Shown: positions 8,826-57,410 of the stretch, piece after piece
Position numbering within the stretch: position 1 is the first letter of the stretch
Layout of the letters: each line of letters starts with the position of its first letter
IMG/VR virus record: IMGVR_UViG_3300050821_016647
Location: 1-64,000 of that record
From: a virus
Reading direction: 5' to 3' (one strand)
Length of the DNA stretch: 64,000 bases
Position numbers and translations under genes: made by a program
The notes under the pieces: generated by a model
What the model saw: only the letters and a program-made list of their open reading frames with translations
Database searches by the model: none
Told to the model about the DNA's origin: nothing

Positions 8826-9142
8826 GTGTTCCCCCCGTCGTGCGAATGGTGGCCCCCCGCAATTGCCCGGGCGTTCACCTTTCGGCCGGACATGGCCTCC
8901 GCGCGTGCGACCGATTGACGTAGCGCCCAGGAATTGGACGCTGTGAGGGTACGGTAGGCGCACGCGTCGGAGACGTTGTCGCGGTCTTTCCACCCCGCGA
9001 ACGCGAGCGCACCGTTAGGCGCGATTGCAACCTTGACCCGTCCCGCGGTTAGCTCCGTCTCCAGACGCGCGAGCGCCTTTTTCACCTGATCGATTCGCTC
9101 CGAGAGCGATTGCCCCGGTTGACGCATTGATTCGCATGCCAT
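8810..9142 (-). CDS. hypothetical protein of the AAA ATPase module
   Basis: Leader GAAGGGACCAA (9157-9147); C-terminal GHHSHDGGNTW. Confidence 0.75.
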   Translation of the reverse strand: MACESMRQPGQSLSERIDQVKKALARLETELTAGRVKVAIAPNGALAFAGWKDRDNVSDACAYRTLTASNSWALRQSVARAEAMSGRKVNARAIAGGHHSHDGGNTWEKH

Positions 9143-9222
9143 TGGCTTGGTCCCTTCGTTGAATCGTTACCCTTCCGACCCCTAGCCTAGCCTAAGCCGG
9201 CCAGGGGTCGACGGGTGACGCG

Positions 9223-10083
9223 CTAGACCGCGCTCGCGGCAAGCGTCTCGCCCGTGGGGGGCGTCTCGCCCGCGACGTCACCCGAGGGGGGCGCGGCCTC
9301 GACGACGGCCGGCGCTTCGCAGTCAAGCTCCGCGAAGCGCTGGACGTTCTCCACGGGGGCCTGTGCCTCGACGGCTGGCGTATCCAAGTCGAGGAAAGCG
9401 AAACGCGCCTTTTCGATCGCGCCGCGCTGGATATCTTGCAGCACGCTTGCCGCGTTTTCGCCCTTTTTCTCGATACGCTTGACGATGGTTCGCGCGGCCT
9501 TGCGCGCTTGCTCGACCGCATCGGAGACGCGGGCGATTTGCTCGTCGCCGAGCATGGCCGACATGTCCGCGGCGCGCGTCGCGGCCTCGCGGATTGCTTT
9601 CACGTCCATTTGCTCGATACCGCGTGACATCGCGTCCAGTAGCGCCGTCACTTCGGAGCCAATGGCGCGCGCGGCCTCCTCATCCGTCGAGGCAATGCGA
9701 CCCTTGATTGTGTAGATCGCGACGCGCGTGCACTTCGCGAGCGCGTTGTGCTCGTCGGCCAGTGCGTAAGCGCGCTTGATTGCCGCGTCCAAGTCGGCCT
9801 CACGGTCGACGGGGCAGAGCAGGCCGAAATTCGTATCGCTGCAAATGTCGCGGATTTCCTTGCACGCCTTGCCGCGCGCCTTGACGGCGCGATCGTGCTC
9901 TGCGGGGTCTTCGATGACTCGCGTGGTCTCCCATCGGGTGACCTCGCGGCGCGTCTCGCCGATTGCGTCGCCCGCGACCCCATCGGCCGGCGCGTCGAGG
10001 TCAACGCGCTTGTACTGAACGCCCCCCGAAACGGTAGAGGAGAGCGCGACGAGTAGGCCCGGACGGATGATTGACGTTCTCAT
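9223..10083 (-). CDS. helical/coiled-coil protein of the AAA ATPase module
   Basis: Start MRTSIIRPGLLV after leader GAAGGGACCAA (10099-10089); Ala-rich helical sequence. Confidence 0.75.
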   Translation of the reverse strand: MRTSIIRPGLLVALSSTVSGGVQYKRVDLDAPADGVAGDAIGETRREVTRWETTRVIEDPAEHDRAVKARGKACKEIRDICSDTNFGLLCPVDREADLDAAIKRAYALADEHNALAKCTRVAIYTIKGRIASTDEEAARAIGSEVTALLDAMSRGIEQMDVKAIREAATRAADMSAMLGDEQIARVSDAVEQARKAARTIVKRIEKKGENAASVLQDIQRGAIEKARFAFLDLDTPAVEAQAPVENVQRFAELDCEAPAVVEAAPPSGDVAGETPPTGETLAASAV

Positions 10084-10116
10084 GGTGATTGGTCCCTTCT
10101 GAAAATGGTTTTCCCG

Positions 10117-10155
10117 GTGTCTCGCGCATGATACGCACGCGCGGGTGATTGTCAA
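10117..10155 (-). promoter_or_regulatory. sigma70-like promoter, repeated early motif (copy 2)
   Basis: Perfect TTGACA(10155-10150)-N16-TATCAT(10133-10128); 20-mer 10117-10136 identical to 11802-11821. Confidence 0.75.
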
Positions 10156-10167
10156 CTTCTCTTTCCC

Positions 10168-11739
10168 TCAGATATCAAATCGCGCGTCGGCGGTAGCGGT
10201 CTCTGGCGTCGACGCGGGACGAGCGCGGCCTTTGGCCCATGCCCTGAGATTTTCGATCTTGTCCGCGCTCGTCTTTGAGAGCGGTACGACCGCGCGCGCC
10301 GCGTTCAGAAGATCGGCCGTCGTGATTGCACGCTCCCCATCGCTGAACGCTACCAGCATCGCGCTCGGGACCAGTGACGCGATTTCGGCGCCGACGAATC
10401 CCGCGCAAGCGCTCGCCACGGTCGCCGCGTCGACGGTTGACGGGTCGCGCCCATACTGGACCATGGCCGCATTGACTACCTCGACGCGTTCGCGCTGCGT
10501 AGGTAGGTCAATGAACCAAATGTCATCGAATCGGCCTTTGCGTAGCATCTCCGGAGGGAGTGAGCGCACGTCGTTTGCAGTGGCCAAGACGAAGACTTCC
10601 GAGCGCTTCTCTTGCATCCAAGAGAGGAAAGCGCCCAGACGATCGGCGGAGACTCCCCCATCGGCGCCAGCTGGCCCCGCATTGAACATTTTTTCGACCT
10701 CGTCCAGCCAAAGCACGCACCGGCCGACCGCGTCCACGGTCTGGAAAAGACGGCGGATCGTCTTCTCACTATCGCCTACGAATTTCCCGGCGGTAGCGTT
10801 TAGGTCGCCGCGCAGCAAGGGGCACCCGAGCGCCGCCGCTACGCATTTCGCGAACAGGCTTTTGCCGGTACCAGGCGGGCCGACGAGCACGTACCCCTTA
10901 GGGCACGTGAGACCGTAAGCGCGTGCTCGGGGTCCGTAGGCGCCTCCAAGCAAGCGCGTTGCCTCTTTGAGCAAGTCTCCCCCGCCCATCGCCGCGAGGC
11001 CGCGTGCGTCGACGTCAAACCATTCGAGGCCGGCAATGCCGTTGACGATCCGCTTTTTCTCGTTGGCGACGATCGCCGCGTCAATCGACTTGCTAGTTAC
11101 CAGTGACTTGGCGTAGCAATTTTTGGCGCCTTGGATCGTCAAGCCGAGAGCCGCGCCAATCGCGGCCTCGCGAGCGCCATTCGTCGGCGCCATGTTCGGG
11201 TAAAGCTCCGTGATTGCGTCCAGCGTCGCCGCGATTTCGGCGCGATCCGGGAGAGGGTAGTCGATGCACGTGGCGTTACCCTGCAATTCGGGCGGTACGT
11301 CACTGGAGTACGTCAAAACCACCATGGCGCGCATCTCCGCGCGCGGCGCGGATTCGAGCTTGCGGGCGAGATTCTTTAGTTTGCGCTGCGTTGTGGGATC
11401 CTTGACCCACACGTGCCAATCGCGGAGCACGTACAGGGCTCGTGTGGGCGTCGACGCGATGAAATCGAGCGCTCGCGAGGGGTCTTGTGCGTTCTCCAGC
11501 ACTTCCCCCGTGGCGCTCGTGATACCCTGATCGCAGTCAACGAACCGCACCTCGTACGTGGCGCTCGCCCCCGCCTCGACTAGCGCGGCCTCGACGCGTG
11601 ACTCTTCTCCCGTTGTGATCCACAGGAGCGTATTTCGGGCTTTCAGTAGCGCGGTAATTTCCGCGGCGACGATCGCCCCCCTTGTCTTCGTGACGAGCGC
11701 GGGAATATCCGCGGCTCGGGTGGTGCCTTGCGTGTTCAT
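10168..11739 (-). CDS. AAA+ ATPase (Ycf46/CDC48-like central domain)
   Basis: Walker A GPPGTGKS, Walker B VLWLDEVEK, LATANDVRSLPPEMLRKGRFD; degenerate N-terminal AAA; start MNTQGTT after leader GAAGGGACCAA. Confidence 0.9.
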   Translation of the reverse strand: MNTQGTTRAADIPALVTKTRGAIVAAEITALLKARNTLLWITTGEESRVEAALVEAGASATYEVRFVDCDQGITSATGEVLENAQDPSRALDFIASTPTRALYVLRDWHVWVKDPTTQRKLKNLARKLESAPRAEMRAMVVLTYSSDVPPELQGNATCIDYPLPDRAEIAATLDAITELYPNMAPTNGAREAAIGAALGLTIQGAKNCYAKSLVTSKSIDAAIVANEKKRIVNGIAGLEWFDVDARGLAAMGGGDLLKEATRLLGGAYGPRARAYGLTCPKGYVLVGPPGTGKSLFAKCVAAALGCPLLRGDLNATAGKFVGDSEKTIRRLFQTVDAVGRCVLWLDEVEKMFNAGPAGADGGVSADRLGAFLSWMQEKRSEVFVLATANDVRSLPPEMLRKGRFDDIWFIDLPTQRERVEVVNAAMVQYGRDPSTVDAATVASACAGFVGAEIASLVPSAMLVAFSDGERAITTADLLNAARAVVPLSKTSADKIENLRAWAKGRARPASTPETATADARFDI

Positions 11740-18200: not shown

Positions 18201-18407
18201 TCACTCCTGCTTGTCCAGGCGCCATCCTAGCAGAAACAGCGTCTTGTAGAGCTCGTCGTAGGGCTCCCGAGCGTAGCGCCAGCGCGCGGCTTCGTCGCCT
18301 TTGGCGCGCTGGCCTGCGATACGAAGCACGCGTCCGTCCGCGAGCTTCACGCTCGCGATGACCGTGCCGTCGGGATGCACGTGCGTCGTAATCATCCCTT
18401 CTTTCAC
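18201..18407 (-). CDS. hypothetical protein
   Basis: Coupled ORF. Confidence 0.55.
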   Translation of the reverse strand: MKEGMITTHVHPDGTVIASVKLADGRVLRIAGQRAKGDEAARWRYAREPYDELYKTLFLLGWRLDKQE

Positions 18408-18697
18408 GAGTCGGGCGCGTAGCCTTGGATCGATGCGGCGGGTCCGATGTCGTCGTAGGGGCTGTTGATGAGAACGCCCGGTTGATTGAGCGCTCCTCCC
18501 GCCGCACCGGTACTGGCGCCCGAGACGGCGTCCTGGGCTGCCGCTCGGACTGCGGCCTCCTGCATCTTCGTGTAGACGAGATAGGCGATGCCGCCGACGA
18601 TCCCAATGCCGATCGCGGCCAGGACGATGTCCTGGGAGGTGTTCACCGCGATCTGTCCGAGGACGCTGTCGGGATTTCGTCGATAGCGGCGTTTCAT
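18404..18697 (-). CDS. basic-NP-TM family membrane protein
   Basis: MKRRYRRNP...DIVLAAIGIGIVGGIAYLVY. Confidence 0.75.
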   Translation of the reverse strand: MKRRYRRNPDSVLGQIAVNTSQDIVLAAIGIGIVGGIAYLVYTKMQEAAVRAAAQDAVSGASTGAAGGALNQPGVLINSPYDDIGPAASIQGYAPDS

Positions 18698-18921
18698 CGC
18701 AGCAAGCTCACGCGTCCATCCGTCGTCCCCGGTATGCCAGACGGCACCTTCACGATTTCGTGATTCAGCCCTCGAGCCTCACTCTGTGCGCATTCGATGC
18801 ACGCAATGAACACGTGCGCGGGCGAGACGTAGAGAACTGCGCGCGCGGCGTTCTCCGGGACCGGCTTGCGGCAGGTCGAGCACGTGGCCTCGCCGCGGAG
18901 GATTTTCGCGTCGGTTTTCAT
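18694..18921 (-). CDS. small Zn-finger protein
   Basis: CSTC...CIEC; coupled at both ends. Confidence 0.6.
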   Translation of the reverse strand: MKTDAKILRGEATCSTCRKPVPENAARAVLYVSPAHVFIACIECAQSEARGLNHEIVKVPSGIPGTTDGRVSLLR

Positions 18922-19439
18922 GTTGAAACGGTGCCTGTCGTCGGAGGAGTGGCGAGATAACTCGCTACCGTTTGAGGAGCCGCCTGCGCAGCAGCTGTAG
19001 CCTGGGCTGCAAGCGCTGCGTTCTGCTGCGACTTCCAGATGAGGTATCCGATGGTACCAACGACAGCGACTCCACCGAGCGCAAGCAGAAAATTGCTATC
19101 AGAAATAGGATTCTTCCGTGACCCGATTCGCATGTTCGACGGCGTCGGTCCTCGTCGCTTGCGCGGTTTCTCCTCGCCCAAGACCGCAAACCGGTGACGA
19201 CCTCCTCCCAAGCGTGTACCGCAGGCGTCGCACGGTCGGTACGAGAATTCGCGAATGCCGTTGTCTTCGTCCGCGTCCTCTGCCGAATCGAAGTCCGGGA
19301 CGAGGTGCGGACCGAGCGCATTGACGCCCTCGATGACGTCGCGCTCGCGGTTCGGGTCGTCGATTCCGGACGTGTCACCGTTGACCGCGTAGAACAGGCA
19401 GTCGTCGCAAAGCCAGAGGTCGTCTCGAATGACTTTCAT
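18918..19439 (-). CDS. Cys-motif domain fused to a basic-NP-TM module
   Basis: CDDCLFYAVNGD...EFSYRPCDACG then RKRR...RKNPISDSNFLLALGGVAVVGTIGYLIW. Confidence 0.75.
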   Translation of the reverse strand: MKVIRDDLWLCDDCLFYAVNGDTSGIDDPNRERDVIEGVNALGPHLVPDFDSAEDADEDNGIREFSYRPCDACGTRLGGGRHRFAVLGEEKPRKRRGPTPSNMRIGSRKNPISDSNFLLALGGVAVVGTIGYLIWKSQQNAALAAQATAAAQAAPQTVASYLATPPTTGTVST

Positions 19440-19448
19440 GAGCTACTC

Positions 19449-19871
19449 CTACGGAAAGGACGGGCCTATGGTGGGAAGAACAGGAACGGTGCCGTACGCG
19501 CGAGCAACCTCTCCGATGGGCTGGACGTTGGGGTCCACTCCATAGCTGGCGCCCGATGCGCCGCCGAGCGGCGTCAAAGACCCGCCTGAGCCGAGGACCG
19601 TGGGCGCGTTCACGTTTCCACCCGCAGGAGTTCCTGCACCGACCGTCCCGCCCCCGTCGCCGGCCGCCGCCTGCGCGTCCTGCATCGAGACCCAGAGGAG
19701 ATAGCCGACGAGCCCGAACGCCGCGACGCCGCCCGCGATCAGTAAGAGATCGGTGCCCGTGATCTTGGCGTCGACCTCGATCGGATTTGCACGCTCCCAT
19801 CGACCCCTGGTCTTCGTGTACTCGACCGTGCGCCCGTCCGGGCGAACCGAAATGAAAACGGGTGATCTCAC
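19449..19871 (-). CDS. basic-NP-TM family membrane protein
   Basis: RWERANP...GTDLLLIAGGVAAFGLVGYLLW. Confidence 0.75.
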   Translation of the reverse strand: MRSPVFISVRPDGRTVEYTKTRGRWERANPIEVDAKITGTDLLLIAGGVAAFGLVGYLLWVSMQDAQAAAGDGGGTVGAGTPAGGNVNAPTVLGSGGSLTPLGGASGASYGVDPNVQPIGEVARAYGTVPVLPTIGPSFP

Positions 19872-20338
19872 GCAGAGGGCGCCACCGGGAGCGGTGACCC
19901 TCCAGGAGCGTAAGGCGGCTGGGGCAAAGCCGGCGAGCCAGGGGGAGGCAAGAAGTTCTGCGCCCCGAGCAGTACCTGGCTCGACGAGGCGAGACTGGGC
20001 TGATTGAGCGACGCCGAGGCAGGCTGGAGAGGCAAGCCCGGGTATCCGTTCGCGGCGGCCGTCGACTGCTCTTGAGCGGCCTGTTGCTGATTCCAGATGA
20101 GGTATCCGACGAGACCGACCGCAGCGATGCCCCCTATCGCGAGCAGGATATCGGTACCGGATAGGCCAAAAGGATTTCGCGACGTCTTCTGGAGCGATTG
20201 ACCGGTACGAAGTCGCCAGTCGAGCTCCGCCGGACCAATGCCTTCACTTTGCAGTCGCGCAGCGACGGGTACCGGATCACGATAGCCAGCACGCCGCAAC
20301 ATGCCGGCCATTCGAACGCGTTCTTGCTGCCGATTCAC
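19868..20338 (-). CDS. basic-NP-TM family membrane protein
   Basis: GTGA-coupled start; KTSRNPFGLSGTDILLAIGGIAAVGLVGYLIW. Confidence 0.75.
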   Translation of the reverse strand: MNRQQERVRMAGMLRRAGYRDPVPVAARLQSEGIGPAELDWRLRTGQSLQKTSRNPFGLSGTDILLAIGGIAAVGLVGYLIWNQQQAAQEQSTAAANGYPGLPLQPASASLNQPSLASSSQVLLGAQNFLPPPGSPALPQPPYAPGGSPLPVAPSA

Positions 20339-20577
20339 AGTATCGACCCGATCGCGGTGAGTGCCGCGGTATTCTGGAGCGTGTCGGAAGTGCTCTCTCC
20401 TGACGGATTGAGTGCTTGGTAGATCATCGTCACACCAAGTCCGACGAGCATGACGCTCGCGACGCCGCCGACGACGAGCTCGGTTGTCGAGGGACCGAGG
20501 GGGTTCTTTCCATACGGCATTCTCTTGGGACCGCACGGTGTACAGAGAACAATCGTCTTTGGACGACGTCGTTTCAT
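20335..20577 (-). CDS. basic-NP-TM family membrane protein
   Basis: MKRRRPK...YGKNPLGPSTTELVVGGVASVMLVGLGVTMIY. Confidence 0.75.
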   Translation of the reverse strand: MKRRRPKTIVLCTPCGPKRMPYGKNPLGPSTTELVVGGVASVMLVGLGVTMIYQALNPSGESTSDTLQNTAALTAIGSIL

Positions 20578-20837
20578 CGACGCCCGCGCCGCTTCGCGCG
20601 CCTCTTCGTCCGACGCTTCACGCGCTTTGCGGGCTTCGCCTTCGACTCGGGCACGTACCGGAACCGCGCGCCCTTCACCGTGAGACTCCGGCCCCCGGTC
20701 TTCTCGAGCCGACCCGCAGCAAACCTTTGCGCGGCTTCCATCTTCCGAAAGTGTTTGATCTTCCGGCCGCCCTTCGTGCAGACGTCGTAGCCGTCCGGCG
20801 CGATGTGAATGACGAGTCCGCTGCCACGCTTTTTCAT
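20574..20837 (-). CDS. small highly basic protein
   Basis: MKKRGSG...KRVKRRTKRRAKRRGRR. Confidence 0.6.
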   Translation of the reverse strand: MKKRGSGLVIHIAPDGYDVCTKGGRKIKHFRKMEAAQRFAAGRLEKTGGRSLTVKGARFRYVPESKAKPAKRVKRRTKRRAKRRGRR

Positions 20838-20851
20838 GAGTCTCTTTCCCT

Positions 20852-21046
20852 TCAGGTGCCCGTACCCGACGGCGCTGGACCCGTCGGAGCGGGCGCCGTT
20901 GCCGCAGCTGCGTTCTCTTGCGACTTCATCCAAAAGGAGAAGCCGAGCGCTCCGACCGCAACGATTCCGACGGCGACACGGAGCCAGTCCTCCGCCTCGC
21001 CCGAGAAGGGATTGCGTTGAAGCGCACGTCTCGAACGACGACGCAT
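20852..21046 (-). CDS. basic-NP-TM family membrane protein
   Basis: MRRRSRRALQRNPFSGE...VAVGIVAVGALGFSFW. Confidence 0.75.
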   Translation of the reverse strand: MRRRSRRALQRNPFSGEAEDWLRVAVGIVAVGALGFSFWMKSQENAAAATAPAPTGPAPSGTGT

Positions 21047-21060
21047 GACCTTCTCCCGAA

Positions 21061-21339
21061 TCAGCCCGTTGCCGAGTAGGGAACAGCCGGCGGGAGCGGA
21101 TTGCCCGACGCGTCGACGCCTGCGGCCGTCGCGCTGCCGAACGTGCCAGGTGCCGCCACCTGCGCGCCCGTGGGAAGCGCGGCGCTCGAGGACGACCCGT
21201 ACTTTTGGTAGAGCAGATAGCCGCCTAACCCCAGCACGGCGACACCGACGAGCCCACCGACGATGAGCTCCGTGTTACTGAGCGGGTTGGCTCGGTAGTA
21301 GCTCGCGGACCGGATCAGCTTGTGCCTTCGACGCGCCAT
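21061..21339 (-). CDS. basic-NP-TM family membrane protein
   Basis: MARRRHK...YRANPLSNTELIVGGLVGVAVLGLGGYLLY. Confidence 0.75.
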   Translation of the reverse strand: MARRRHKLIRSASYYRANPLSNTELIVGGLVGVAVLGLGGYLLYQKYGSSSSAALPTGAQVAAPGTFGSATAAGVDASGNPLPPAVPYSATG

Positions 21340-21396
21340 GGATGGTCTCTCCTGTAGGTCTTGACCGCGTCCGCGGTCGTGCTTAGCCAGCATACG

Positions 21397-21771
21397 TCAG
21401 TCGAGGGAAATCGTCACCTTCTGACCTACAGCGACCCCATGCCGTTGGCAAAAGCCTCCTCGAACTTCCAAGACGCTCGTCGACGGCCTCTCAACCCCTC
21501 TGGGGGTTTCATCGTAGGGCTGCAAGGTCAGGATCCCTACGACGTTCACGCCGTCGATGAAAACAAGGTCGAGTACGAGACCTGTGCGTCTCATCCAAAA
21601 TAAACGGGCCTTCCGATCCGTGAACCAGAAAATGGCCCCCTCGTCTTCTGCAAGAGACGCTCGATCCATCAAACCGCGCTGTTGCTCCTCCGGAGCCTCG
21701 AGAATCTCCACGCGCACGGTCGGGCCCTGCTGCACACACCCCTTCGTGAAGCGCACGAGCCCCGGCGTCAT
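21397..21771 (-). CDS. DUF192 family protein
   Basis: QQRGLMDR..L..DEGAIF...FWMRRT..LDLVFID...VLEVRGG. Confidence 0.85.
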   Translation of the reverse strand: MTPGLVRFTKGCVQQGPTVRVEILEAPEEQQRGLMDRASLAEDEGAIFWFTDRKARLFWMRRTGLVLDLVFIDGVNVVGILTLQPYDETPRGVERPSTSVLEVRGGFCQRHGVAVGQKVTISLD

Positions 21772-22016
21772 GCGTCCACCGCCACGATGGCGCCCACGCA
21801 CGGCTTTGCATGACACCGCATGCAGTCGAGCTCGCTCCAGATGCCCCCGAGGACGCGGTCGGTGCTGTCGTCGATGCATTCGGCGCAAACGCGCTCGCGC
21901 TTGCCTCGGTCCCGGGCGTCGCGCTCAGCCGCTTTTCGATAGAGCGAGTCGGCTTGAAGCCCGACCTGACGGCCTCGTTCACGCGGCGACGTCGGTAACG
22001 TGGAGGAGGCAGCCAC
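21768..22016 (-). CDS. small Zn-finger protein
   Basis: CAEC...CMRC; start uncertain. Confidence 0.4.
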   Translation of the reverse strand: MAASSTLPTSPRERGRQVGLQADSLYRKAAERDARDRGKRERVCAECIDDSTDRVLGGIWSELDCMRCHAKPCVGAIVAVDA

Positions 22017-22017
22017 G

Positions 22018-22398
22018 TCACCCTGCCTGAAGAAGCCGCTCGACCGTGTACACGTACTTCGCCGCGAGACTATCACCGGGAATGGCGCTGCCTGGGGTTG
22101 CGCCGAGACCTGTTACACCTGTCGAGCTCGAAGACGTACCGCTCGGAATCAGAGCTGGAGGGGACCCGTCCGGATTCGGAGGTACCACAGGAACACCACA
22201 CCACCCTGGTGTGCTCTGCGCCCGCGTCATCAGGTAGACGAGAAAGCCGGCGGCGACCGCAGTGACCCCGATGATGGCAACGAGCGCGACGGGGGAGAGC
22301 TCGAGAGGATTGGCGCGGTCCTGACCCTGTCCGTAGACCTCCAGGACCGGGTTCTTCTTGCTCTTGCCCGAGCCGTAGACCCTCACTTTGTACGCCAC
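22018..22398 (-). CDS. basic-NP-TM family membrane protein (two NP motifs)
   Basis: KSKKNP...DRANPLELSPVALVAIIGVTAVAAGFLVY; also VTGLGATP. Confidence 0.75.
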   Translation of the reverse strand: MAYKVRVYGSGKSKKNPVLEVYGQGQDRANPLELSPVALVAIIGVTAVAAGFLVYLMTRAQSTPGWCGVPVVPPNPDGSPPALIPSGTSSSSTGVTGLGATPGSAIPGDSLAAKYVYTVERLLQAG

Positions 22399-22430
22399 GC
22401 TCAGGAGCGTAGCCGCGTTTCACAGCGTGT

Positions 22431-23213
22431 TCAACGATGTCGACGTTTCACCGGTTTCCGTTTCCGGCGCACCGGATTCGCCTTCGGCAGCACGCGCACG
22501 CGTACATCCGGTTCAGGCTGCGAAAGAGCGACGCCAATCGCGATACCGGCAGCCATGATGAGTGCACCGCTCGCGATCCAGACCCAGAGCGGAATCTTGA
22601 TGGACTGAGGCGCCGGGCTGACTGGCGGCAGTCCCTCTTCCAACATCCCAAGAAACGAATCACTCGCCGAGAGAATGGCGAGCCTCTGCTCTTCGCTGAT
22701 AGCCGGCGACTGTGGGAGCTGAAAGTCCGGAACGTGAGGGAGCGGAAACGGCGCGTACGCTGTCTCGAACGGAGGCGACTCAGCCGGGACCTCGATGACC
22801 GTGAAGGTCTCTCGGCCTTTGGTCTCGTAATAAACTGGGACCGGGACCTCGACGATCGCAAAGACCGGATCGCCCGACGGCCTGAGCTCGTCGTCGTCAC
22901 CAGGCGGTGGCTGTTCGCTCCGGTGATAGTCATCGATCTGCTTTCGTAGGGAGAGAAGAGGATCGTCTTCCCTCGGCGGCCCGAACGGGTGCTTCCACTT
23001 CTCTTCGTAGGGTTGCTTATACCGCGGCGGCCCTCCTACGTAACCTGTCGCTGCCCCACCCTTCGGTAGTGGCGTAGGCGGAACAGGAGGCGGCGGAACC
23101 GGCGTCGCAGGGAACGGGATGTAGTCGCGGTCGGTCCAGCCCGAGATGTCAGCCGTGACGTCGAACCACGTCGTGGCGATGCCACCTATGTCCCAGGAGC
23201 CTTCGCGAGCCAT
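22431..23213 (-). CDS. Pro-rich protein with C-terminal TM-NP-basic module
   Basis: IPLWVWIASGALIMAAGIAIGVAL...PKANPVRRKRKPVKRRHR. Confidence 0.7.
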   Translation of the reverse strand: MAREGSWDIGGIATTWFDVTADISGWTDRDYIPFPATPVPPPPVPPTPLPKGGAATGYVGGPPRYKQPYEEKWKHPFGPPREDDPLLSLRKQIDDYHRSEQPPPGDDDELRPSGDPVFAIVEVPVPVYYETKGRETFTVIEVPAESPPFETAYAPFPLPHVPDFQLPQSPAISEEQRLAILSASDSFLGMLEEGLPPVSPAPQSIKIPLWVWIASGALIMAAGIAIGVALSQPEPDVRVRVLPKANPVRRKRKPVKRRHR

Positions 23214-23230: not shown

Positions 23231-24229
23231 TTACTTCAGATCGAGCCACTTCCGGTTCGCAGGATCGACGATCCACCTTACGGTCTTTGCGAGGCTGTCG
23301 AAAAAATCCCGAGGGATCTCCCAACCCATCTCGCGCATGCGTGCTCCGTCGAGGGCGTAACGGAGGTCGTGCCCGGGTCTGCTGGAATGGAAGTCCACGA
23401 GCTCGAAATTTGGGTCTCGGTTGAGAATGGATCCAACGAGCTTGACCATGTCGAGATTCGAGATCTCGCGCTCACCTACGATGTTGTACTTCTCGCGCAC
23501 GACGCCGCGCTCGAGAAGAAACGTGACAGCTGAGGCGACGTTGCGCGCGTGGATGTAGAAGCGGCTCCCCGCGACCGTCTTCTCGGGATTGGAGTGCACG
23601 AGAATCTTCTCGCCACTGAGCGCGCGGCGCACGACCATCGGAATGAACTTCTCCGGGTGCTGTCGCTCGCCGAAGACGTTCATCGTGTGCGTCACAAAGA
23701 CCGGCACCTTGTACGTGTTGGCCCACGCGAGACAGAGCTCTTCGCCGCTTGCTTTCGTGGCCGAGTATGGGTTCGTCGAGTTGTAGCGGTCCCACTCCTT
23801 GTGCAAAGTCCCTTCCGGCGCCGGGCCGAAGACCTCGTCGGTCGAGAAGTAGATCATTTTCTCGAGCTTCGAGAGCCGGCGAGCCCACTCGAGCATTCGG
23901 AACGTCCCTACGACGTTGCTCTGGATGAACGGCCACGGGTTCTCAATCGAGTTGTCGACGTGTGTCTCGGCGCCGAGATGCACGATGTACTCGGGATCGC
24001 CCAGCTCCTGTCGAAGCCCAGCGCCGAACTCGTGCGTGAAATCGGCGGTGAACATGTGTACGCGCCGGTCGTCGAACGCGTCAATGTCGTGGAGCCGGTC
24101 GAAACCGCTGGAAGCATAGGTGAGCCGGTCGAGGATCGTAATGTCCCAGTCCGTGTTCCTGATGACGTGCTCGACGATGTGGTGACCAATAAAACCAGCG
24201 CCGCCCGTAATGAGAATTCGCTTGGTCAC
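23231..24229 (-). CDS. rfbB: dTDP-glucose 4,6-dehydratase (NDP-sugar SDR)
   Basis: ITGGAGFIGHH, HLGAETHVDNSI, FSTDEVFG, NPYSATKA, NVFGERQHPEKFIP, RPGHDLRYA. Confidence 0.93.
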   Translation of the reverse strand: MTKRILITGGAGFIGHHIVEHVIRNTDWDITILDRLTYASSGFDRLHDIDAFDDRRVHMFTADFTHEFGAGLRQELGDPEYIVHLGAETHVDNSIENPWPFIQSNVVGTFRMLEWARRLSKLEKMIYFSTDEVFGPAPEGTLHKEWDRYNSTNPYSATKASGEELCLAWANTYKVPVFVTHTMNVFGERQHPEKFIPMVVRRALSGEKILVHSNPEKTVAGSRFYIHARNVASAVTFLLERGVVREKYNIVGEREISNLDMVKLVGSILNRDPNFELVDFHSSRPGHDLRYALDGARMREMGWEIPRDFFDSLAKTVRWIVDPANRKWLDLK

Positions 24230-44086: not shown

Positions 44087-45328
44087 TCAGCCGCCCGCTG
44101 ACTGCGCGGTCCCGACCACGCCCGCCGGGACGAGGTGGTTCAGGATGTACTGCTTCCAGGGTCCCCAGATCTCGAAGCCCTTGATGAGAATGGCGAGCTG
44201 GAGCGCGCCACCCTTCATGAGCACGCGATCCGTCTCGACGGCCTTCTCGACCACGATCGTGGTCGGCTCTGCCGTGTCCGCGAACGACAGCTCTGCGATC
44301 GTAACCGCCGTGAGGCCGTCCGTCGCCGGGCCGATCGGCATCACGGTGTGCGTGGTGCCGAAGCCATGGTCGTTGTTGGACAGGTATTGCTTCATGAGGT
44401 TCTGGTGGTACTCGTCCTGCGCCTTGAGCACCATCCCGATCGGGATGCCGCGCTCGAGCAGAACCGGCTTGAACAGCTTCCGGAACGGCTGGAGCATGCC
44501 CGTCATCCCCTGCGTGCGGAGGCCGCCGTAGGTGACGTCGAGCAGATCGTACGCGCGGGTCGGGTGGTACACGCCCGTGCTCGTCGCGCCGCCGGTCGTG
44601 ACCGACCCGATGCGCTGCGAGTTGATCGGGAGGAACGTGCCCGTATCACCGATGGGCGCGCCCTGGTACTTCGCGTTCACGCGGTCGACGTACCGCTGGA
44701 ACGCCTGCTGCGAAGAGCCCGCCGCGACGGCCTCGGCGTACGAGCCGAAGTAGCTCACGTCCGCCGCCAGCTCGTTGATCAGCAGGTAACGCTGCTGCAT
44801 GATCCACTGGAACTGGTAGGCGTTCATGAGGTGCCAGAGCGCGTTCTGCGCGCAGACGCCCCACTCGAGCGTGGCCGGGGTCATCGTCTGACCGCCCGAG
44901 AGTCCGAGGCCGGTCAGGTCATCGGTCGCGAACGAGTCGGGCGAGTTCGGGATCGCCCCGGATGCCGGCTGGAAGTTGATGTAGTTGCCGATCTGCGAGC
45001 CCTGCTGGGGCTCGGCAAACCCGTGCACGCCGAAGCCGATGACCAGCATGTCGACTTGGAGGATGCCGTTGATGACGAACGAGCTGTCGACGTCCTGGAC
45101 CCCCGGTACGGCCTTGGGGTTTTGGAGCACGTCGATCTCGTCACCGAACGTCCCGTCGATGAAGCCGTCGGCGACGGGCAGATCGATCGTCCACGTCACG
45201 TACTCGATGACGGGCACCTGCGTAAAACCGCAAGTGAGAACGCTGTTGACGACGTTGTCGGAGGGAGCCGCACCGAGTCCCACCATGCGGCTGGGATTCT
45301 CGAGCTTGTGCATGCTTGAGCTTTTCAT
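44087..45328 (-). CDS. candidate major capsid protein (jelly-roll-like)
   Basis: 413 aa, very strong GC3 bias, beta-rich (KPVLLERGIPIGMVLKAQ, LQLAILIKGFEI), N-terminal ENP + MVGLGAAP, followed by a hairpin; no HK97 features recognised. Confidence 0.55.
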   Translation of the reverse strand: MKSSSMHKLENPSRMVGLGAAPSDNVVNSVLTCGFTQVPVIEYVTWTIDLPVADGFIDGTFGDEIDVLQNPKAVPGVQDVDSSFVINGILQVDMLVIGFGVHGFAEPQQGSQIGNYINFQPASGAIPNSPDSFATDDLTGLGLSGGQTMTPATLEWGVCAQNALWHLMNAYQFQWIMQQRYLLINELAADVSYFGSYAEAVAAGSSQQAFQRYVDRVNAKYQGAPIGDTGTFLPINSQRIGSVTTGGATSTGVYHPTRAYDLLDVTYGGLRTQGMTGMLQPFRKLFKPVLLERGIPIGMVLKAQDEYHQNLMKQYLSNNDHGFGTTHTVMPIGPATDGLTAVTIAELSFADTAEPTTIVVEKAVETDRVLMKGGALQLAILIKGFEIWGPWKQYILNHLVPAGVVGTAQSAGG

Positions 45329-45441: not shown

Positions 45442-47139
45442 TCAGTCCTCCGGGAACGAGGCGTACATCCCGAAGCCCTTGGGGAGAGCTCCGAGACACG
45501 ACTCATCACGAATCGCTGCCATCGCAGCAGCGTGCGTAGCGGCGATGCCGCCAGAGGTGCTCGTGCACGGAGCGCACTGCGGACCCGTGCTGGGTCCACC
45601 TGGCAGAACCGTTCCGGCCGGCGGGTCCTGGACCACGTCGCCGGTATTCGTGAGAATACCGTGCGGGGTCTGGAGCGGATGCGCAGGGTAACCGACAGGA
45701 ATGGTCGGTCCACCGCCCGGTGCATAGATCGCCGGAGGCGTGCTGCCGCCGGGCAATCCAGGAGGAGCGTTCCCTGGGCCGCCAGGCGAGTACGGCGCCT
45801 GGTTCGGCTGGGACGCTGGAATCACCATGGACGTCGGTGCAATCGGCGTGTTCACGGTGAGAGGCGAGGGAGCGTTCTGTCCCACACCGCGTGCCTTGGG
45901 CCCAGGGTCCCTTAGCGCCGGACGGCGACCGACACCGCGGGGGAGACCCGCGAGCGGAGTCGACGTCGTGGGAGCTGCCGCGGTTCCGGCTGCCGGAGTG
46001 GCCGCCGTCACCGCCGCCTGCGCTTCGATCTCGGCGAGGTAGAGCTGCTGTCCGAGCGCCGTCGAACCGATCATGGAAGCCATGACCGACTTGAACAGGT
46101 TGCCGAACAGAGCCGCGCCCGCGCCGAGCATCATGCCCTGAAGGGCCGCGCGGCCCCACGGGGAATCGACGAACGCCGCCGCGATCCCTGGCACCGCAGC
46201 CACGCCGAACTGCGCGGCCATGGACTGCCAGGATGGGAATGCCTGAGTCGCGACGTCGTTCGGAACGACCTGCGTGCCGCCCGGTGGAACGCTGTTCGCT
46301 GGCTGACCTGCCGCAACGGCTGTCGTCGACATGTACCGTCCGACGAAGTCCGCGAGACCGTAGCCGAGGATGCCGGTGATTCCGACGAGCACGAGCTCAC
46401 CACCAGACAGCGGGTTCGAGAGCACATAGCCCTCAGCACCGATCGTGTCGTACGCCTCGCGCTCGCTGTAGCCGGACCGACCGTAGGCCGGCAACCGGTG
46501 CGAACGCGGAGTGCGACGTGCATGTGACCGACGACGGCTCGAGCTGCGGCGCGTCTTGCGGTGCCGACGCGGAGCCGCACGACGAGTGCGACGCGCATGC
46601 GACCGACGGACCGAACGACGACGCCGACGCGGCGCAGAGAGCCCGAGGCGACGCCGACGCCGACGAATGCCCTTCAGGGCCGCCTTGCGGTGCCGACGCG
46701 GTTGCCCGAACCACTCCTTCGCGCGCGCCCTCTTCCGGCGGCGACGCGGAGCTGCGCGACGAACCGCACGACGCCGACGCCGACGGACCGGAGCCGCGTG
46801 GTGCCGACGCGCCGCGAGGCGACGCCGACGCCGACGGATGCCCTTGCGAGCGGCACGACGGTGACGGATCGGTTGTCCCTTCCAATCGGAAGCCTTCGCC
46901 CTGCGACGCCGACGGCGCTTGGGGGCTGCTGCCGCGGGGGCTGCAACGCGACGCCGACGCCGACGACGCGGGGCGGCTGCCGGAGCGGCTGCCCGGCGAC
47001 GACGCCTGCGCGGAGCTGCGGCGGGGGCTGCGGCCCTGCGACGGCGACGGCGCGGCGCTGCGGCGGACGACTTCACGAAGTGGCCCCTCGAGTTTCTTTT
47101 GCGACCGCGGGCTGCGCGCGACTTGCGGCGTGACTTCAT
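45442..47139 (-). CDS. protamine-like Arg-rich core protein fused to an NP motif and multi-TM domain
   Basis: SD GGGAG then MKSRRKS; (AAAP)RRRRRR repeats; LSNPLSGGEL + TM; further hydrophobic helices; frame stays open and basic up to 47502. Confidence 0.8.
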   Translation of the reverse strand: MKSRRKSRAARGRKRNSRGHFVKSSAAAPRRRRRRAAAPAAAPRRRRRRAAAPAAAPRRRRRRRVAAPAAAAPKRRRRRRAKASDWKGQPIRHRRAARKGIRRRRRRLAARRHHAAPVRRRRRRAVRRAAPRRRRKRARAKEWFGQPRRHRKAALKGIRRRRRRLGLSAPRRRRRSVRRSHARRTRRAAPRRHRKTRRSSSRRRSHARRTPRSHRLPAYGRSGYSEREAYDTIGAEGYVLSNPLSGGELVLVGITGILGYGLADFVGRYMSTTAVAAGQPANSVPPGGTQVVPNDVATQAFPSWQSMAAQFGVAAVPGIAAAFVDSPWGRAALQGMMLGAGAALFGNLFKSVMASMIGSTALGQQLYLAEIEAQAAVTAATPAAGTAAAPTTSTPLAGLPRGVGRRPALRDPGPKARGVGQNAPSPLTVNTPIAPTSMVIPASQPNQAPYSPGGPGNAPPGLPGGSTPPAIYAPGGGPTIPVGYPAHPLQTPHGILTNTGDVVQDPPAGTVLPGGPSTGPQCAPCTSTSGGIAATHAAAMAAIRDESCLGALPKGFGMYASFPED

Positions 47140-47543
47140 TGGCAGTGTCTCCCTAGTGGAAAAACCCGGCGCTTTGGCCGACTTCGAAACGGTAACGAAG
47201 TAGCCTGTAGACGTCAAACGTCTCACATGATTGGCAGTCGTCGAACGCGGTTTACGACCACGTGAATAGCGACGGATCACCGAGAATTTGGCTCTCGAAT
47301 GCTTGCGACGTCGCGGCGCACTATTCGACTTGTCGGAGCGAGTTTTCGTGGCTACTCGCTTTGTAATACGCTTGTGTGCAGCGCTCGTAGACCGATTTCG
47401 CGATACACGCTTAGGTTTTGTATTACGAGCGCCGGCTTCGTCGCTTTCACTCCTGAATGCGTTCATTCGAGCCGCATAATCCCCGCCGGATGACTTCGCC
47501 ATCCACAACGAATACGCCCACGCGGGCGGAACGACAACTCGCT

Positions 47544-47981
47544 CTACGGGAACACGTACCCGCGGTCGTCTACGATGCAGCCGTCTCCCAGTGACAACTT
47601 GTAAATGCGACCAGCTTTCCACAGAGTGGGTTGCCGCGATTTGAACGGGTGATGGAAGCCACCACTGGCTCGCTTGCCCTTGCGCACGTAAAGAATCTGC
47701 GCAACTTCTCCGACTTTCTTCCAGCCATCCTTCGGAATCTTCGGCAGCGTCGCGAGCACCGCTTGGTAGTCGGCACCGAAGTAGCGCCGGTGCGATCGAT
47801 TCATCTCGACCGGACGCCGCGTCTTCTTGAAGGGTCCAAAAAAGACATCACACTTCGGCAACACGACCCCTTCCTGGTCGTGGAACGTCCCATAGGATGC
47901 CGGCAAGCGAATGGTCTTACCGTTGGCCATCTCGAAGACCACGCGGTCCGACTCGACACGAATGGACGGCGACTCGCTCAC
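47544..47981 (-). CDS. basic hypothetical virion protein
   Basis: GTGA-coupled; ILYVRKG...GGFHHPF...PTL...IVDDRGYVFP. Confidence 0.65.
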   Translation of the reverse strand: MSESPSIRVESDRVVFEMANGKTIRLPASYGTFHDQEGVVLPKCDVFFGPFKKTRRPVEMNRSHRRYFGADYQAVLATLPKIPKDGWKKVGEVAQILYVRKGKRASGGFHHPFKSRQPTLWKAGRIYKLSLGDGCIVDDRGYVFP

Positions 47982-48379
47982 GACGCCCCCTGCTGAAGCG
48001 AGCTCGAGTACCCGCCGGGGGCCCCGCCTGAAGCAACGTAATTGAGCATGTTGGCCGTGGCCCACGTTTGGTAACCACTAACGGAGGGTGCCGTCCCAGC
48101 CGGCAACGACGCAACGTACATCGCCGGCAGCTGTGCAATCGAAGCGGCAAGCGCCGTCGACTGCGCCGCAGTCGGCTGCATCCCTCCGATGCCTGCGTTG
48201 GTCGCAAGGATCTGATTCAAGATCCCGTTCTGCACGTCCGCGCTCGGGGGCCAGACGCTGTTCTGATACGTGGTGTAAACCATCCACCCGACGCCGCCGA
48301 CGACGACCGCGCCCAGACCCAGCAGAAGCCACTGCTGAGCCTGGGGGGAAAGCGGGTTACGTCGGGAGCGCCGTCTCAT
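47978..48379 (-). CDS. basic-NP-TM family membrane protein
   Basis: MRRRSRRNPLSPQAQQWLLLGLGAVVVGGVGWMVY. Confidence 0.75.
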   Translation of the reverse strand: MRRRSRRNPLSPQAQQWLLLGLGAVVVGGVGWMVYTTYQNSVWPPSADVQNGILNQILATNAGIGGMQPTAAQSTALAASIAQLPAMYVASLPAGTAPSVSGYQTWATANMLNYVASGGAPGGYSSSLQQGAS

Positions 48380-48392
48380 TCGCCGACCGCGA

Positions 48393-48692
48393 TCAGATGG
48401 CCGCGAGATTCGACGCGTAGGGCTGGAAGATGGATGGCAGATTCGCAACGGCGGCCTGACCGGCCGGCGTCTGAAGCCATGCCTGCTCGTTCGCAGTCAC
48501 CGGCGTCGAACCCGCCGGTAGCGTCGCGGCATACGCGGCGTTGAGCTGGGACGCCTCGTAGATCGTGTACACGATCCCGGCCGCGGTAAGCGTCCCGAGG
48601 CCGATGAGCAGCCACTCGATTCCGGTCGGATTCTCTTTGCCGTACGCGCGAGAGCTGCTGAAACGACGGCGTCGATGATGTCTTCTTCGCAT
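48393..48692 (-). CDS. basic-NP-TM family membrane protein
   Basis: MRRRHHRRRR...GKENPTGIEWLLIGLGTLTAAGIVYTIY. Confidence 0.75.
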   Translation of the reverse strand: MRRRHHRRRRFSSSRAYGKENPTGIEWLLIGLGTLTAAGIVYTIYEASQLNAAYAATLPAGSTPVTANEQAWLQTPAGQAAVANLPSIFQPYASNLAAI

Positions 48693-49646: not shown

Positions 49647-49648
49647 GG

Positions 49649-50224
49649 TCACCCCGCCAGTAAAACGTTCGGTGCGACCCAGTAATTGTTGAAGACCTGC
49701 GTCCACCCGGCCCCTGGCGATCCGACCTGGTACACGGCCTTGAGGTGGTGCGGCATCGCCGTCACACCGGTAGGACACCAGATCCAATACTCACCGACCT
49801 GATGCCACTGACCTTGACCGGCTTGCGGCGCCTTCGACGGCATCGCCCCGTGCGTGTACCAGAAGCCGCGCGGATCGAACTTGGGAGGAATCTGCGCGCC
49901 AGCGGCGACGAGCGTCGGCGCAGCTTGAATGTTGGTCTTGTGGCCTTCAACGATCGAAAGAGACGTGTGCTCCGGAGGAGGCGACATCGCAACATCAGGG
50001 CGCATCAGTGCTCCAACACCTTCCGGCTCTTTCGCGGCTCCTTCCGACTCCTTCCCTACTCCCTCCGGTTCCTTCCCTACACCCTCCGGCTCCTTCACCG
50101 TACTCTTCGTCGGTGCCGAGGTATCCGGCCACTTCTTCCTCTCTCCCCCAGGAAGCAGACCCAGACCTCGAATGATCCCCTGAGGGAAGATGTAGTCCTT
50201 GTCGGGATTGCGATCGTCACTCAT
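49649..50224 (-). CDS. virion protein with KEPEGVG repeats and Trp-rich repeats
   Basis: MSDDRNPDKDYIFPQGIIRGLGL; (KEPEGVG)x~4; GQWHQVGEYWIWCP, GWTQVFNNYWVAP. Confidence 0.65.
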   Translation of the reverse strand: MSDDRNPDKDYIFPQGIIRGLGLLPGGERKKWPDTSAPTKSTVKEPEGVGKEPEGVGKESEGAAKEPEGVGALMRPDVAMSPPPEHTSLSIVEGHKTNIQAAPTLVAAGAQIPPKFDPRGFWYTHGAMPSKAPQAGQGQWHQVGEYWIWCPTGVTAMPHHLKAVYQVGSPGAGWTQVFNNYWVAPNVLLAG

Positions 50225-50745
50225 CGAGCTCTCCTTCGTGGCTTCGCGCGTCGTACGCGTCTGAACCTTCGTTGCGTTCCGTGACCGATCGAAAGCGGGT
50301 TTGACTTCATTCCCGCCGGAGCAACCGCGGGTCGCATCGCCGACCATGCGATGAACCCGAGGAGTCCGAGAAGCGCAGTTCCACCGAGCACCCACGCCCA
50401 CGTGGGCACGCTCGAGGTCGCGGGAGCTGCGGCTACGGGAACCGGCGCTGTGTACGTCGGAAGAGGAAGAGTGCCAGGAAACGACGTGGGCACGATCGCC
50501 GTCGAGCCGACAGGATTGAGTCCGTCCGTCGAAGCTGGAGGCGTCACACCGGGTATCGGGATCTCCACGCCCGATACGAGCGGCGTCGTATCCGCAGTCA
50601 CAGCCGGAGCCGGCGGCGGCTCGGGCGGTGGCGTAAGTGGCGGGAGAGTGGTCGGAGCGTACATGACCCCGGCAGATACCTGGCCTAGACCTGTAGGAAC
50701 AGAGGCGCCGTTTTGGGGCGTAGCAGGCGTAGCTGTTGCTTCCAT
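50221..50745 (-). CDS. Pro-rich protein with TM-NP-basic C-terminus
   Basis: PTGLGQ; VPTWAWVLGGTALLGLLGFIAW...MKSNPLS...RRFRRVRRAKPRRRAR. Confidence 0.75.
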   Translation of the reverse strand: MEATATPATPQNGASVPTGLGQVSAGVMYAPTTLPPLTPPPEPPPAPAVTADTTPLVSGVEIPIPGVTPPASTDGLNPVGSTAIVPTSFPGTLPLPTYTAPVPVAAAPATSSVPTWAWVLGGTALLGLLGFIAWSAMRPAVAPAGMKSNPLSIGHGTQRRFRRVRRAKPRRRAR

Positions 50746-57086: not shown

Positions 57087-57410
57087 TCAGGCGATAGCGA
57101 CCGGATCAGCGACGATCTTGCACATCAATCCGGCCGCAAGCTGGTGTGTATAAAGGTCCCTGAAAGGAGCGGCCTGATCCGTTCCCGCCGGGAAGTTCGC
57201 GATGTAGGCGGCCGTGTTGATGTCGAAGACGAGCGTCCGTGTTGCCGTGGCACCACCAAGCGAGGTCGTGTCCGAGGTCAACGTACATCCCGTGATCGTC
57301 TGGATCGGCGCTGGGTCGAGTACGACAGCCGTCATCGCTGCCTCGAGCTCGTCAGGAGTGACAGGACCCTGCGCCGTCGCGTGATAGACGAGGGTCGCGG
57401 TAAGGCTCAC
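57087..57410 (-). CDS. small hypothetical protein
   Basis: 107-aa Thr/Ala-rich coupled ORF. Confidence 0.6.
   Translation of the reverse strand: MSLTATLVYHATAQGPVTPDELEAAMTAVVLDPAPIQTITGCTLTSDTTSLGGATATRTLVFDINTAAYIANFPAGTDQAAPFRDLYTHQLAAGLMCKIVADPVAIA

Follow-up and report, generated by a model that had tools for sequence, protein, structure and literature searches.

The window analyzed here is the first 64 kb (positions 1 to 64,000) of the 127,529-bp virus record IMGVR_UViG_3300050821_016647 in IMG/VR, a genome with direct terminal repeats that is rated 100% complete. The genome has a G+C content of 0.62 and carries nearly all of its genes on the minus strand, and ~27% of its ~204 predicted proteins contain a hydrophobic helix (predicted transmembrane (TM) segment). 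Two groups of genes in the window, at 18404-22398 and 47978-48692, belong to what sequence comparison identifies as a lineage-specific family of small, predicted single-pass membrane proteins, marked by an Asn-Pro (NP) dipeptide beside the TM helix. A script that searched for NP with a hydrophobic 17-mer 2-21 residues downstream returned 32 cases genome-wide, 21 of which align as one family (alignment A1) with N and P as the sole invariant columns, and the hidden Markov model (HMM) built from A1 scores these 21 paralogs at 42-69 bits. Ten of the paralogs lie in the window (eight at 18404-22398 and two at 47978-48692) and 11 in a second tandem array at genome positions 97091-102925.

An earlier, sequence-only reading had grouped 14 genes of the window into one such family. 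The open reading frames (ORFs) and motifs it described are present at their positions, and ten of the genes (18404, 18918, 19449, 19868, 20335, 20852, 21061, 22018, 47978, and 48393) are members at 42-69 bits, while 14433 (HMM 3-4 bits) and 22431 (NP absent in its sole ortholog) had to be set aside. These twelve genes are given below, with N-type denoting NP ahead of the TM helix, P-numbers denoting metagenome representatives, L-numbers related contigs or loci (L007-9 being near-identical 73-kb relatives), and G001-G005 relative genomes (G001-G003 complete).

18404..18697, minus strand: N-type member of 97 aa, MKRRYRR-NP-linker-TM-low-complexity tail; HMM 59.5 bits; identical to metagenome representative P0009
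18918..19439, minus strand: N-type member of 173 aa, in which residues 10-87 form a Cys-rich N-terminal domain ahead of SRK-NP-TM; HMM 65.9 bits; NP retained in the ortholog-like representatives P0026, P0027, and P0037
19449..19871, minus strand: N-type member of 140 aa, ERA-NP; HMM 64.8 bits; NP retained in P0014, P0042, and P0047
19868..20536, minus strand: N-type member, TSR-NP; HMM 63.8 bits and a frame check; NP retained in P0008; the true start is probably an internal Met near 20311, and with that start the gene no longer overlaps 20335-20577
20335..20577, minus strand: N-type member of 80 aa, YGK-NP, with the most divergent TM helix of the array; HMM 42.9 bits, coding score 11.8
20852..21046, minus strand: N-type member of 64 aa, MRRRSRRALQR-NP; HMM 61.8 bits; NP retained in the relatives P0024, P0088, P0101, and P0136 and in L006 17825-18268
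21061..21393, minus strand: N-type member, YYRA-NP; HMM 56.9 bits; NP retained in the L005 and L006 orthologs; the probable start is the Met at 21339, as in these orthologs
22018..22398, minus strand: N-type member of 126 aa carrying two copies of the motif (KK-NP and RA-NP); HMM 42.3 bits
47978..48448, minus strand: N-type member inside the structural block, MRRRSRR-NP, probable start near 48379; top HMM score (69 bits); NP retained in P0036 and P0075
48393..48692, minus strand: N-type member of 99 aa, GKE-NP, adjoining the transglutaminase-like gene; HMM 47.8 bits
14433..14765, plus strand: first gene listed in the sequence-only reading, KSRR-NP ~30 aa before a TM helix; best-coding frame in its interval and probably a real gene, with family membership not demonstrable at 3-4 bits
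22431..23213, minus strand: protein with a TM helix followed by KA-NP-V-RRKRK, second of two proposed 'mirror' proteins; coding score 33.8; its sole ortholog found (P0288, 55% identity) is without NP at that place, so the NP is read as probably coincidental

Searched against 1.84 billion metagenome proteins, the A1 profile recovered 376 representatives (50%-identity clusters) at E<=1e-3, and NP is kept across the top members of this 376-cluster family. Conservation figures refer to the top 150 representatives, 146 of which are true members and 142 of which are aligned at the N and P columns. NP is present in 138 of the 146; among the 142, N is conserved in 100% and P in 97% (the exceptions being NQ, NA, and NT), and one member in L006 has NE. 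The proposal of an invariant [RK]xNP therefore holds for NP itself, whereas a basic residue at -2 is only common (R 58%, K 14%); R at -1 occurs in 29% of relatives. To avoid circularity, a TM-only profile was rebuilt without the NP and linker columns and applied to the genome and its relatives, where 46 of 54 hits at >=14 bits had NP <=32 aa upstream and 3 more had NQ or NE, with ~6% expected from composition. Of the 71 predicted TM segments in this genome, 26 have NP <=25 aa upstream (3.6 +/- 1.8 in shuffles), while NP shows no excess downstream of TM segments (5 versus 3.6 in shuffles); its frequency ahead of TM helices is thus above background in the shuffle test, and relatives of the family members keep it. 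Because the enriched genes are paralogs, the figure of 26 of 71 reflects shared descent plus constraint rather than 26 independent events, and the meaningful test is conservation.

The codons for NP vary (AAT or AAC, followed by all four CCN), which places the constraint on the protein and not on the DNA and rules out a DNA-level repeat as the cause of NP. As the sequence-only reading had argued, the positive-inside rule is insufficient to explain the dipeptide, since distant members, some of them in the NP-state genomes described below, keep NP without any basic run (e.g., FENPILFENPISDG). Outside the family, NP beside poly-basic runs is not above chance once family members are set aside. Judged by these alignments, the constraint on NP greatly exceeds what the positive-inside rule can account for.

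The family is expanded and apparently undescribed, as had been supposed, with no Pfam or PHROG match and with all database relatives unnamed or 'hypothetical'. Over the NP-TM core of ten members, Pfam-A (no match at E<=1) and PHROGs returned chance-level results only (E>0.01), the single PHROG match (phrog_3034) being to an N-terminal cargo domain, and the ESM Atlas returned unnamed viral clusters only, at chance-level scores. Literature searches on the family and the virus lineage turned up only known Asn-Pro systems and small membrane-containing phages, and the lineage, like the family, is apparently undescribed.

The conserved unit of ~45 residues comprises an optional basic run or soluble 'cargo' domain, the NP box, a linker, the TM helix, and a variable tail. 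Its consensus is [RK]-x-N-P-[LIVA]-[STG] followed by a 1-21-residue linker that usually contains an acidic residue (112 of 138 members have one ahead of the helix and after NP, with Glu at -1 in 34%). NP falls within the first 15 residues in 64 representatives, while N-terminal domains of >60 aa precede it in 52 of 138 relatives, up to ~170 aa; about half of the relatives have an oligo-Arg leader alone before NP, and more than one third have unrelated N-terminal domains. The N-terminal domain of 18918..19439, for example, matches phrog_3034 (E 2.6e-8), a free-standing phage family of unknown function. In some members the motif is duplicated. Column statistics define a conserved face of the TM helix (G26, G31, G34-Y35, Y/W38, and Q42), and as this one face carries invariant small and aromatic residues, it points to specific helix packing; the tail after the helix is rich in Ala, Pro, Thr, Gly, Ser, and Gln and is variable. 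An AlphaFold2 (AF2) model of 21061-21393, computed from 74 aligned sequences, shows no structure other than a helix spanning residues 40-66 and places NP (residues 36-37) in low-confidence coil rather than in a folded, strained loop. The helix begins 3 residues after NP, at an S-x-x-E box, and a role of NP as helix N-cap is accordingly not supported by this model. Located in coil, at variable distance from the helix, sometimes duplicated, surviving the loss of the basic run, and unchanged in chain direction on either side of a TM helix, the NP segment behaves like a short linear motif. Among the proteins that score against the family helix profile, P0001, P0017, P0053, and P0121 are long proteins with 3-8 tandem Gly-rich GAAGYG(I/L)Y(E/D)ATK-like units; they look like a separate repeat family, and P0121 also has RRNP and LKNP ahead of its GAAGYG-like units.

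Beyond the small family, the motif is found in a C-type protein, where it follows the TM helix, and in a large core protein encoded beside a candidate capsid gene. These and the associated structural genes are as follows.

50221..50745, minus strand: C-type protein with a Pro-rich N-terminal part, TM helix, linker, K-S-NP-L, and poly-Arg C-terminus (alignment A4)
45442..47622, minus strand: 726-aa core protein encoded immediately upstream of the capsid candidate, with ~400 aa of Arg-rich repeats, LS-NP-LSGGEL, several TM helices, and a Pro-rich tail
44087..45328, minus strand: capsid-protein candidate and lineage marker, with the highest coding score in the genome
48723..49787, minus strand: transglutaminase-like (papain-fold) protein, Pfam Transglut_core E 2.9e-7

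Of the two 'mirror' proteins (TM-NP-basic) put forward in the sequence-only reading, 22431 failed as described above and 50221 held up, with NP and the poly-Arg tail kept in 8 of 8 orthologs at 30-70% identity (A4). Its TM region scores 14-18 bits against the family profiles, and its motif reads [K]-x-N-P-[LM], in the same direction as in the N-type proteins even though it lies after the TM helix. The core protein 45442-47622, a predicted membrane-anchored, protamine-like protein with AAAP-R6-type repeats and orthologs in L005-L048, had also been counted as a family gene; it is not detectably homologous to the small family (~5 bits), but its NP is conserved in orthologs of several lineages. 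The chain direction of the motif is identical in N-type, C-type, and core proteins, and in all three architectures NP marks the boundary between a basic segment and a membrane anchor. Occurring in the core protein as well as in the small family, the motif is probably a functional signal.

For comparison, 36 IMG/VR loci with relatives of the capsid candidate were fetched. Wherever a locus covers the region before the capsid-candidate gene, an ortholog of the core protein stands there, and two states of its junction can be distinguished. The junction reads xxNP[LM]xGxE in the window and in 11 loci (L005, L006, L015-L019, L014, and L007-9), which amount to ~9 distinct lineages because L007-9 are near-identical, and it is a variable Gly-rich sequence (GGMG, GPGMS, GGSMG) in ~20 other loci. 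The capsid candidate of L007-9 is merely 29% identical to that of the window, yet the NP junction is kept. One locus with an NP junction, L017 (IMGVR_UViG_3300045391_004661), has a G+C content of 0.41 compared with 0.59-0.71 in all other relatives; its basic core protein is Lys-rich and not Arg-rich, and it keeps an ENPLSGGE junction. A quick maximum-likelihood tree built from the capsid candidate places the Gly-rich state in a single crown group, with the NP lineages paraphyletic. This branching suggests an ancestral NP junction that disappeared on one occasion, but the polarity is provisional because the tree was rooted at its midpoint.

The small family co-occurs with the capsid-candidate lineage and follows the state of the junction, its copy number among relatives ranging from 0-1 up to at least 13. 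Family hits number 4 in G004 and 3 in G005, the NP-state genomes, and all of them carry NP; among the complete Gly-rich genomes there are 0 in G001, 0 in G002, and 1 marginal hit in G003. The TM-only profile found nothing in the two Gly-rich genomes fetched, and in one complete Gly-rich genome there was neither a 'GG' version of the small family nor an array of basic-TM proteins. The joint loss of the NP junction and the small family, being a single case, is suggestive but not proof of a function of NP that the core protein and the small family have in common.

The conserved structural core of the genome (40969-49787) consists of 398-aa and 201-aa proteins, the capsid candidate, the Arg-rich protein, a 173-aa protein (47544-48065), and the transglutaminase-like protein, with homologs reaching down to 28-29% identity in the 73-kb viruses L007-9. 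Two family members (47978-48692) lie between the core protein and the transglutaminase-like gene, and in L007-9 family members are likewise found inside the same structural block. The transglutaminase-like protein is the sole recognizable candidate for a processing enzyme in this block. A PDB sequence search with it returned nothing, and its homologs (L005-L009, L013, L014, G001, G002, G004, and G005) occur in both the NP and the Gly-rich clades.

The capsid candidate has 405 unnamed metagenomic relatives on contigs of up to ~200 kb. Its AF2 model (predicted local distance difference test score (pLDDT) 81) is a beta-sandwich whose best structural matches are weak (Z 4-5), comprising SPV1, P23-77 VP16/VP17, HCIV-1, and PRD1 P3 mixed with unrelated sandwiches, and a Foldseek search against PDB and BFVD returned TM-score ~0.1 matches to papillomavirus L1 only; the protein is called a candidate because its jelly-roll matches are weak and mixed. 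It begins MKSSSMHKLENPSRMVGLG, and within its first 25 residues G-L-G is nearly invariant in 35 relatives (alignment A2), with NP present in close relatives only and N-T in many others. The R-M-V-G-L-G of this start is similar to adenovirus protease sites of the (M/I/L)-X-G-X-G type.

The lineage appears to be an uncharacterized group of large (~55-125 kb) uncultivated viruses with a prokaryote-like genome organization. A phage-like replication block at 69-78 kb encodes a ResIII helicase, AAA_24, a PD-(D/E)XK nuclease, a DNA methylase, and a D5-type primase-helicase, and two tyrosine integrases are encoded in the 127.5-kb genome. No recognizable capsid, portal, terminase, or packaging genes turned up in this virus lineage: the FtsK (PF01580), A32 (PF04665), and Terminase_6N profiles gave zero matches against the whole genome, although divergent forms could escape them, and a tblastn search of 50,697 phage records with the capsid candidate gave no match. 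A strongly conserved 555-aa protein at genome positions 113065-114732, with a very high coding score, a match to phrog_1735 (function unknown, E 7e-164), and 71% identity to a G001 protein, could be a missing morphogenesis or packaging gene. A scan of species genomes for a host found only three short contigs of metagenome-assembled genomes (MAGs), in bins from three phyla (Acidimicrobiales, Binatia, and Polyangiaceae), which are probably viral contigs carried into the bins. The label 'tailless membrane-containing virus' is no more than plausible for this lineage.

The two arrays lie among accessory genes. A DUF192 (COG1430) protein gene (21397-21888) lies inside the first array, which is followed by a gene for an NAD-dependent sugar epimerase/dehydratase (23231-24229) and by methyltransferase-like genes. 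The second array adjoins a gene for a subtilase-family (S8) protease (genome 104082-105422), and among the four relatives compared a homolog of the S8 gene is found only in G001, which belongs to the clade without the small family. Among the related contigs, the L010 array has at least 13 members and the L011 array at least 10. Near the end of the latter 62.7-kb ENA contig, one family member is encoded twice on opposite strands (8839-9483, minus, and 9776-10453, plus), which reflects either a terminal inverted repeat or an assembly fold-back.

Our favored reading, held tentatively and at somewhat less than an even chance, is that these proteins are a portable virion membrane-anchor or assembly module whose NP motif is read at the cytoplasmic surface of the membrane while particles assemble. 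The basic or cargo side would stay on the cytoplasmic face, as expected from the positive-inside rule, and the Gly-striped helix, given its conserved stripe, would pack against a common partner helix or against paralogs. NP would then act as a directional short linear motif at the membrane surface, recognized by a conserved viral component during virion assembly, and the same recognition step would handle the junction between the Arg-rich part and the membrane part of the core protein 45442-47622. We infer the topology, the existence of a reader, and any processing, as well as the location in a virion and a viral membrane to which the sequence-only reading had assigned the family. That reading is supported in part, its proposed sorting or cleavage signal being hypothetical.

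Several observations weigh against this assembly-module reading. Most members in the window's genome are located in two arrays 22-55 kb from the capsid-candidate gene, amid accessory genes (epimerase, DUF192), and the weak fold match of the capsid candidate bears on the idea of a membrane-containing particle. The NP junction and the family disappeared together in one evolutionary event, which may represent shared history only, and the Gly-rich linkers that replace NP in the sister clade would also fit a plain hinge. Additionally, a BLAST-level comparison of gene content between the NP-state genomes (G004 and G005) and the Gly-rich genomes (G001 and G002), which share very few BLAST-detectable genes, turned up no convincing reader gene and no NP-restricted gene except a 107-aa ORF (57087-57410).

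Alternatively, NP may be a scissile site, with the Asn-Pro bond cut autocatalytically, through attack by the Asn side chain as in reovirus mu1/VP5, RsgI, and the NPTH proteins, or by a viral protease (48723-49787 being the candidate), releasing oligo-Arg leaders, cargo, or the protamine-like domain from their anchors during maturation; this is the main rival, plausible though unlikely. The strict invariance of Asn, combined with a Pro that tolerates Q, A, T, and E, is the pattern expected of a P1 or nucleophile Asn, and in N-type, C-type, and core proteins alike the site invariably separates the anchor from the basic or cargo part. The acidic residue that most members have between NP and the helix recalls the VP5/mu1 mechanism (PMC10328401), and Asn-Pro cleavage has published precedents (PMC10328401, PMC9148132, PMC3189125). 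The few members truly without NP are also without a poly-basic leader, and the structural block has a conserved gene for a papain-fold enzyme. That gene, however, is not NP-specific, because it also occurs in the Gly-rich clade; all known Asn-Pro autocleavages take place in folded domains, whereas here NP lies in low-confidence coil with a variable linker; TH does not follow NP; and the halves of the core protein are never separate genes in ~30 loci. A fuller version, in which leaders, cargo, and a 400-residue protamine-like domain are made as membrane-tethered precursors and freed at Asn-Pro by self-cleavage or by the papain-fold enzyme, organizing the genome in a new large membrane-containing virus, would constitute an unknown step of virion maturation; we give it a small but real chance, slightly below that of cleavage as such.

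It is rather improbable that NP is a structural break only, that is, an Asx-Pro turn or hinge that frees the basic tail from the TM helix, with Pro shielding Asn from deamidation and neither a specific reader nor cleavage involved, on a generic anchor diversified by duplication. The turn-forming Gly-rich linkers (GGMG, GPGMS) that replace NP in the core protein of the sister clade are consistent with this explanation, as are the variable linker length and the AF2 model, with coil at NP and a helix 3 residues later at the S-x-x-E box. A hinge would nevertheless be expected to drift among G, S, D, N, and P, yet N is found in 100% and P in 97% of members while the Gly-rich linker does drift. The flanking positions -2, +1, and +2 are also biased, and whether before or after a TM helix, the motif runs in a single chain direction.

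Least probable of all, the proteins could be expanded, fast-evolving accessory effectors of the host membrane rather than virion parts (acting in superinfection exclusion, lysis timing, envelope remodeling, or surface decoration, with NP read by a host factor), an explanation that accommodates the two large tandem arrays outside the structural block beside sugar-modifying and other accessory genes, the highly variable, exposed low-complexity tails, and the copy number of 0-1 to >=13 among relatives, but not the members that the structural block contains both in the window (47978-48692) and in L007-9, nor a motif that is common to the core protein beside the capsid candidate and was lost together with it.

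As a marker, the family points to a widespread, unnamed lineage of large viruses known solely from metagenomes, and an invariant two-residue motif in ~20 paralogs per genome and at the junction of a core protein provides a sharply defined handle on how the particles are built. As a processing or sorting signal, NP would represent a new type among the few membrane-proximal signals of prokaryotic systems and could serve as a portable tag for loading proteins into such particles. Should NP be a hinge only, the family would still be a useful marker for recognizing this virus group.

Asn-Pro autoproteolysis is known from the NPTH site of YscU, FlhB, and EscU (PMC3189125), from Asn42-Pro43 of reovirus mu1 and aquareovirus VP5 (PMC9148132), and from the juxtamembrane periplasmic domain of RsgI (PMC10328401). 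The family shares with these sites a strictly conserved Asn followed by Pro in a membrane-tied protein, often with an acidic residue nearby; it differs from them in that the NP of NPTH, mu1, and RsgI is located in a folded domain (in an inter-strand loop or at a helix end) with defined neighbors, whereas here it lies in predicted coil with a variable linker, and there is no homology. The analogy to the NPTH of FlhB/YscU drawn in the sequence-only reading does not hold, because T-H after NP is absent in the 21 paralogs and in the column statistics of the 146 relatives (L/I/A/V and then S/G/T being found instead) and because these single-TM proteins have no Bac_export_2-like folded domain, which in the YscU/FlhB type is cytoplasmic and follows four TM helices. 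In VP5/mu1, a nearby Glu or Asp polarizes Asn42, and NP terminates a short helix of the penetration protein, which is folded and has a leader N-myristoylated at Gly2 (PMC10328401). These viral precedents release a small N-terminal peptide. In the family there is no Gly2 (N-termini being MRRR or MKRR), and the only folded element in the AF2 model is the TM helix. In RsgI, NP lies between beta1 and beta2 of an extracytoplasmic domain after the TM helix; here it precedes the TM helix on the basic, presumably cytoplasmic, side, and no beta domain is predicted.

Other membrane-proximal signals resemble the motif in part. The class III (prepilin) signal has a basic leader, a site on the cytoplasmic face, a helix, and an acidic residue soon after, as in the family. 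However, it has Gly or Ala at the cut, a helix at +1, Glu at +5, and a short leader, compared with Asn-Pro instead of Gly-Phe, a 1-21-residue linker, and long N-terminal domains here, and the family motif also occurs after the TM helix in the C-type protein. No Peptidase_A24 (PF01478) was found in the complete virus genome at E<=0.1, while control genomes were positive, and a host enzyme is possible. The motif is thus not of the prepilin type, given that Asn replaces Gly, the linker is variable, the N-terminal domains are long, and no A24 peptidase is encoded. The Tat motif is S/T-R-R-x-F-L-K before a hydrophobic region. A Tat signal is rejected here, with R at -2 in 58% and at -1 in 29%, many members having one or no basic residue, and the motif also standing after the TM helix. 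LPXTG and PEP-CTERM sorting signals place the motif on the outer side, followed by a TM helix and a basic C-terminus, whereas the order in the C-type protein is TM, NP, and basic tail and the N-type signal is near the N-terminus; such signals are ruled out by the location of the motif on the basic side.

The closest comparisons are with viruses that carry small membrane proteins or Arg-rich core proteins. PRD1 and PM2 are internal-membrane phages with small virion membrane proteins. The lineage described here, known from genes alone, is similar in having small, mostly single-pass proteins near structural genes and no recognizable tailed-phage genes, though Pfam and PHROG searches revealed no sequence relationship to the PRD1/PM2 membrane proteins. 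Viruses of the PRD1/PM2 type have genomes of 10-15 kb and, to our knowledge, neither a 20-member paralog family nor a conserved juxtamembrane motif. Adenovirus pVII and pX/Mu are Arg-rich, genome-condensing proteins made as precursors, and protamine-like proteins are comparable. The core protein resembles them in its ~400 aa of Arg-rich repeats encoded beside the capsid-candidate gene, with a papain-fold enzyme gene in the same block; it differs in that the basic domain is fused to a multi-TM domain, there is no homology, and processing would here be hypothetical. While viral membrane-anchor proteins as such are already known, what is new here is the sharply defined juxtamembrane motif that they carry.

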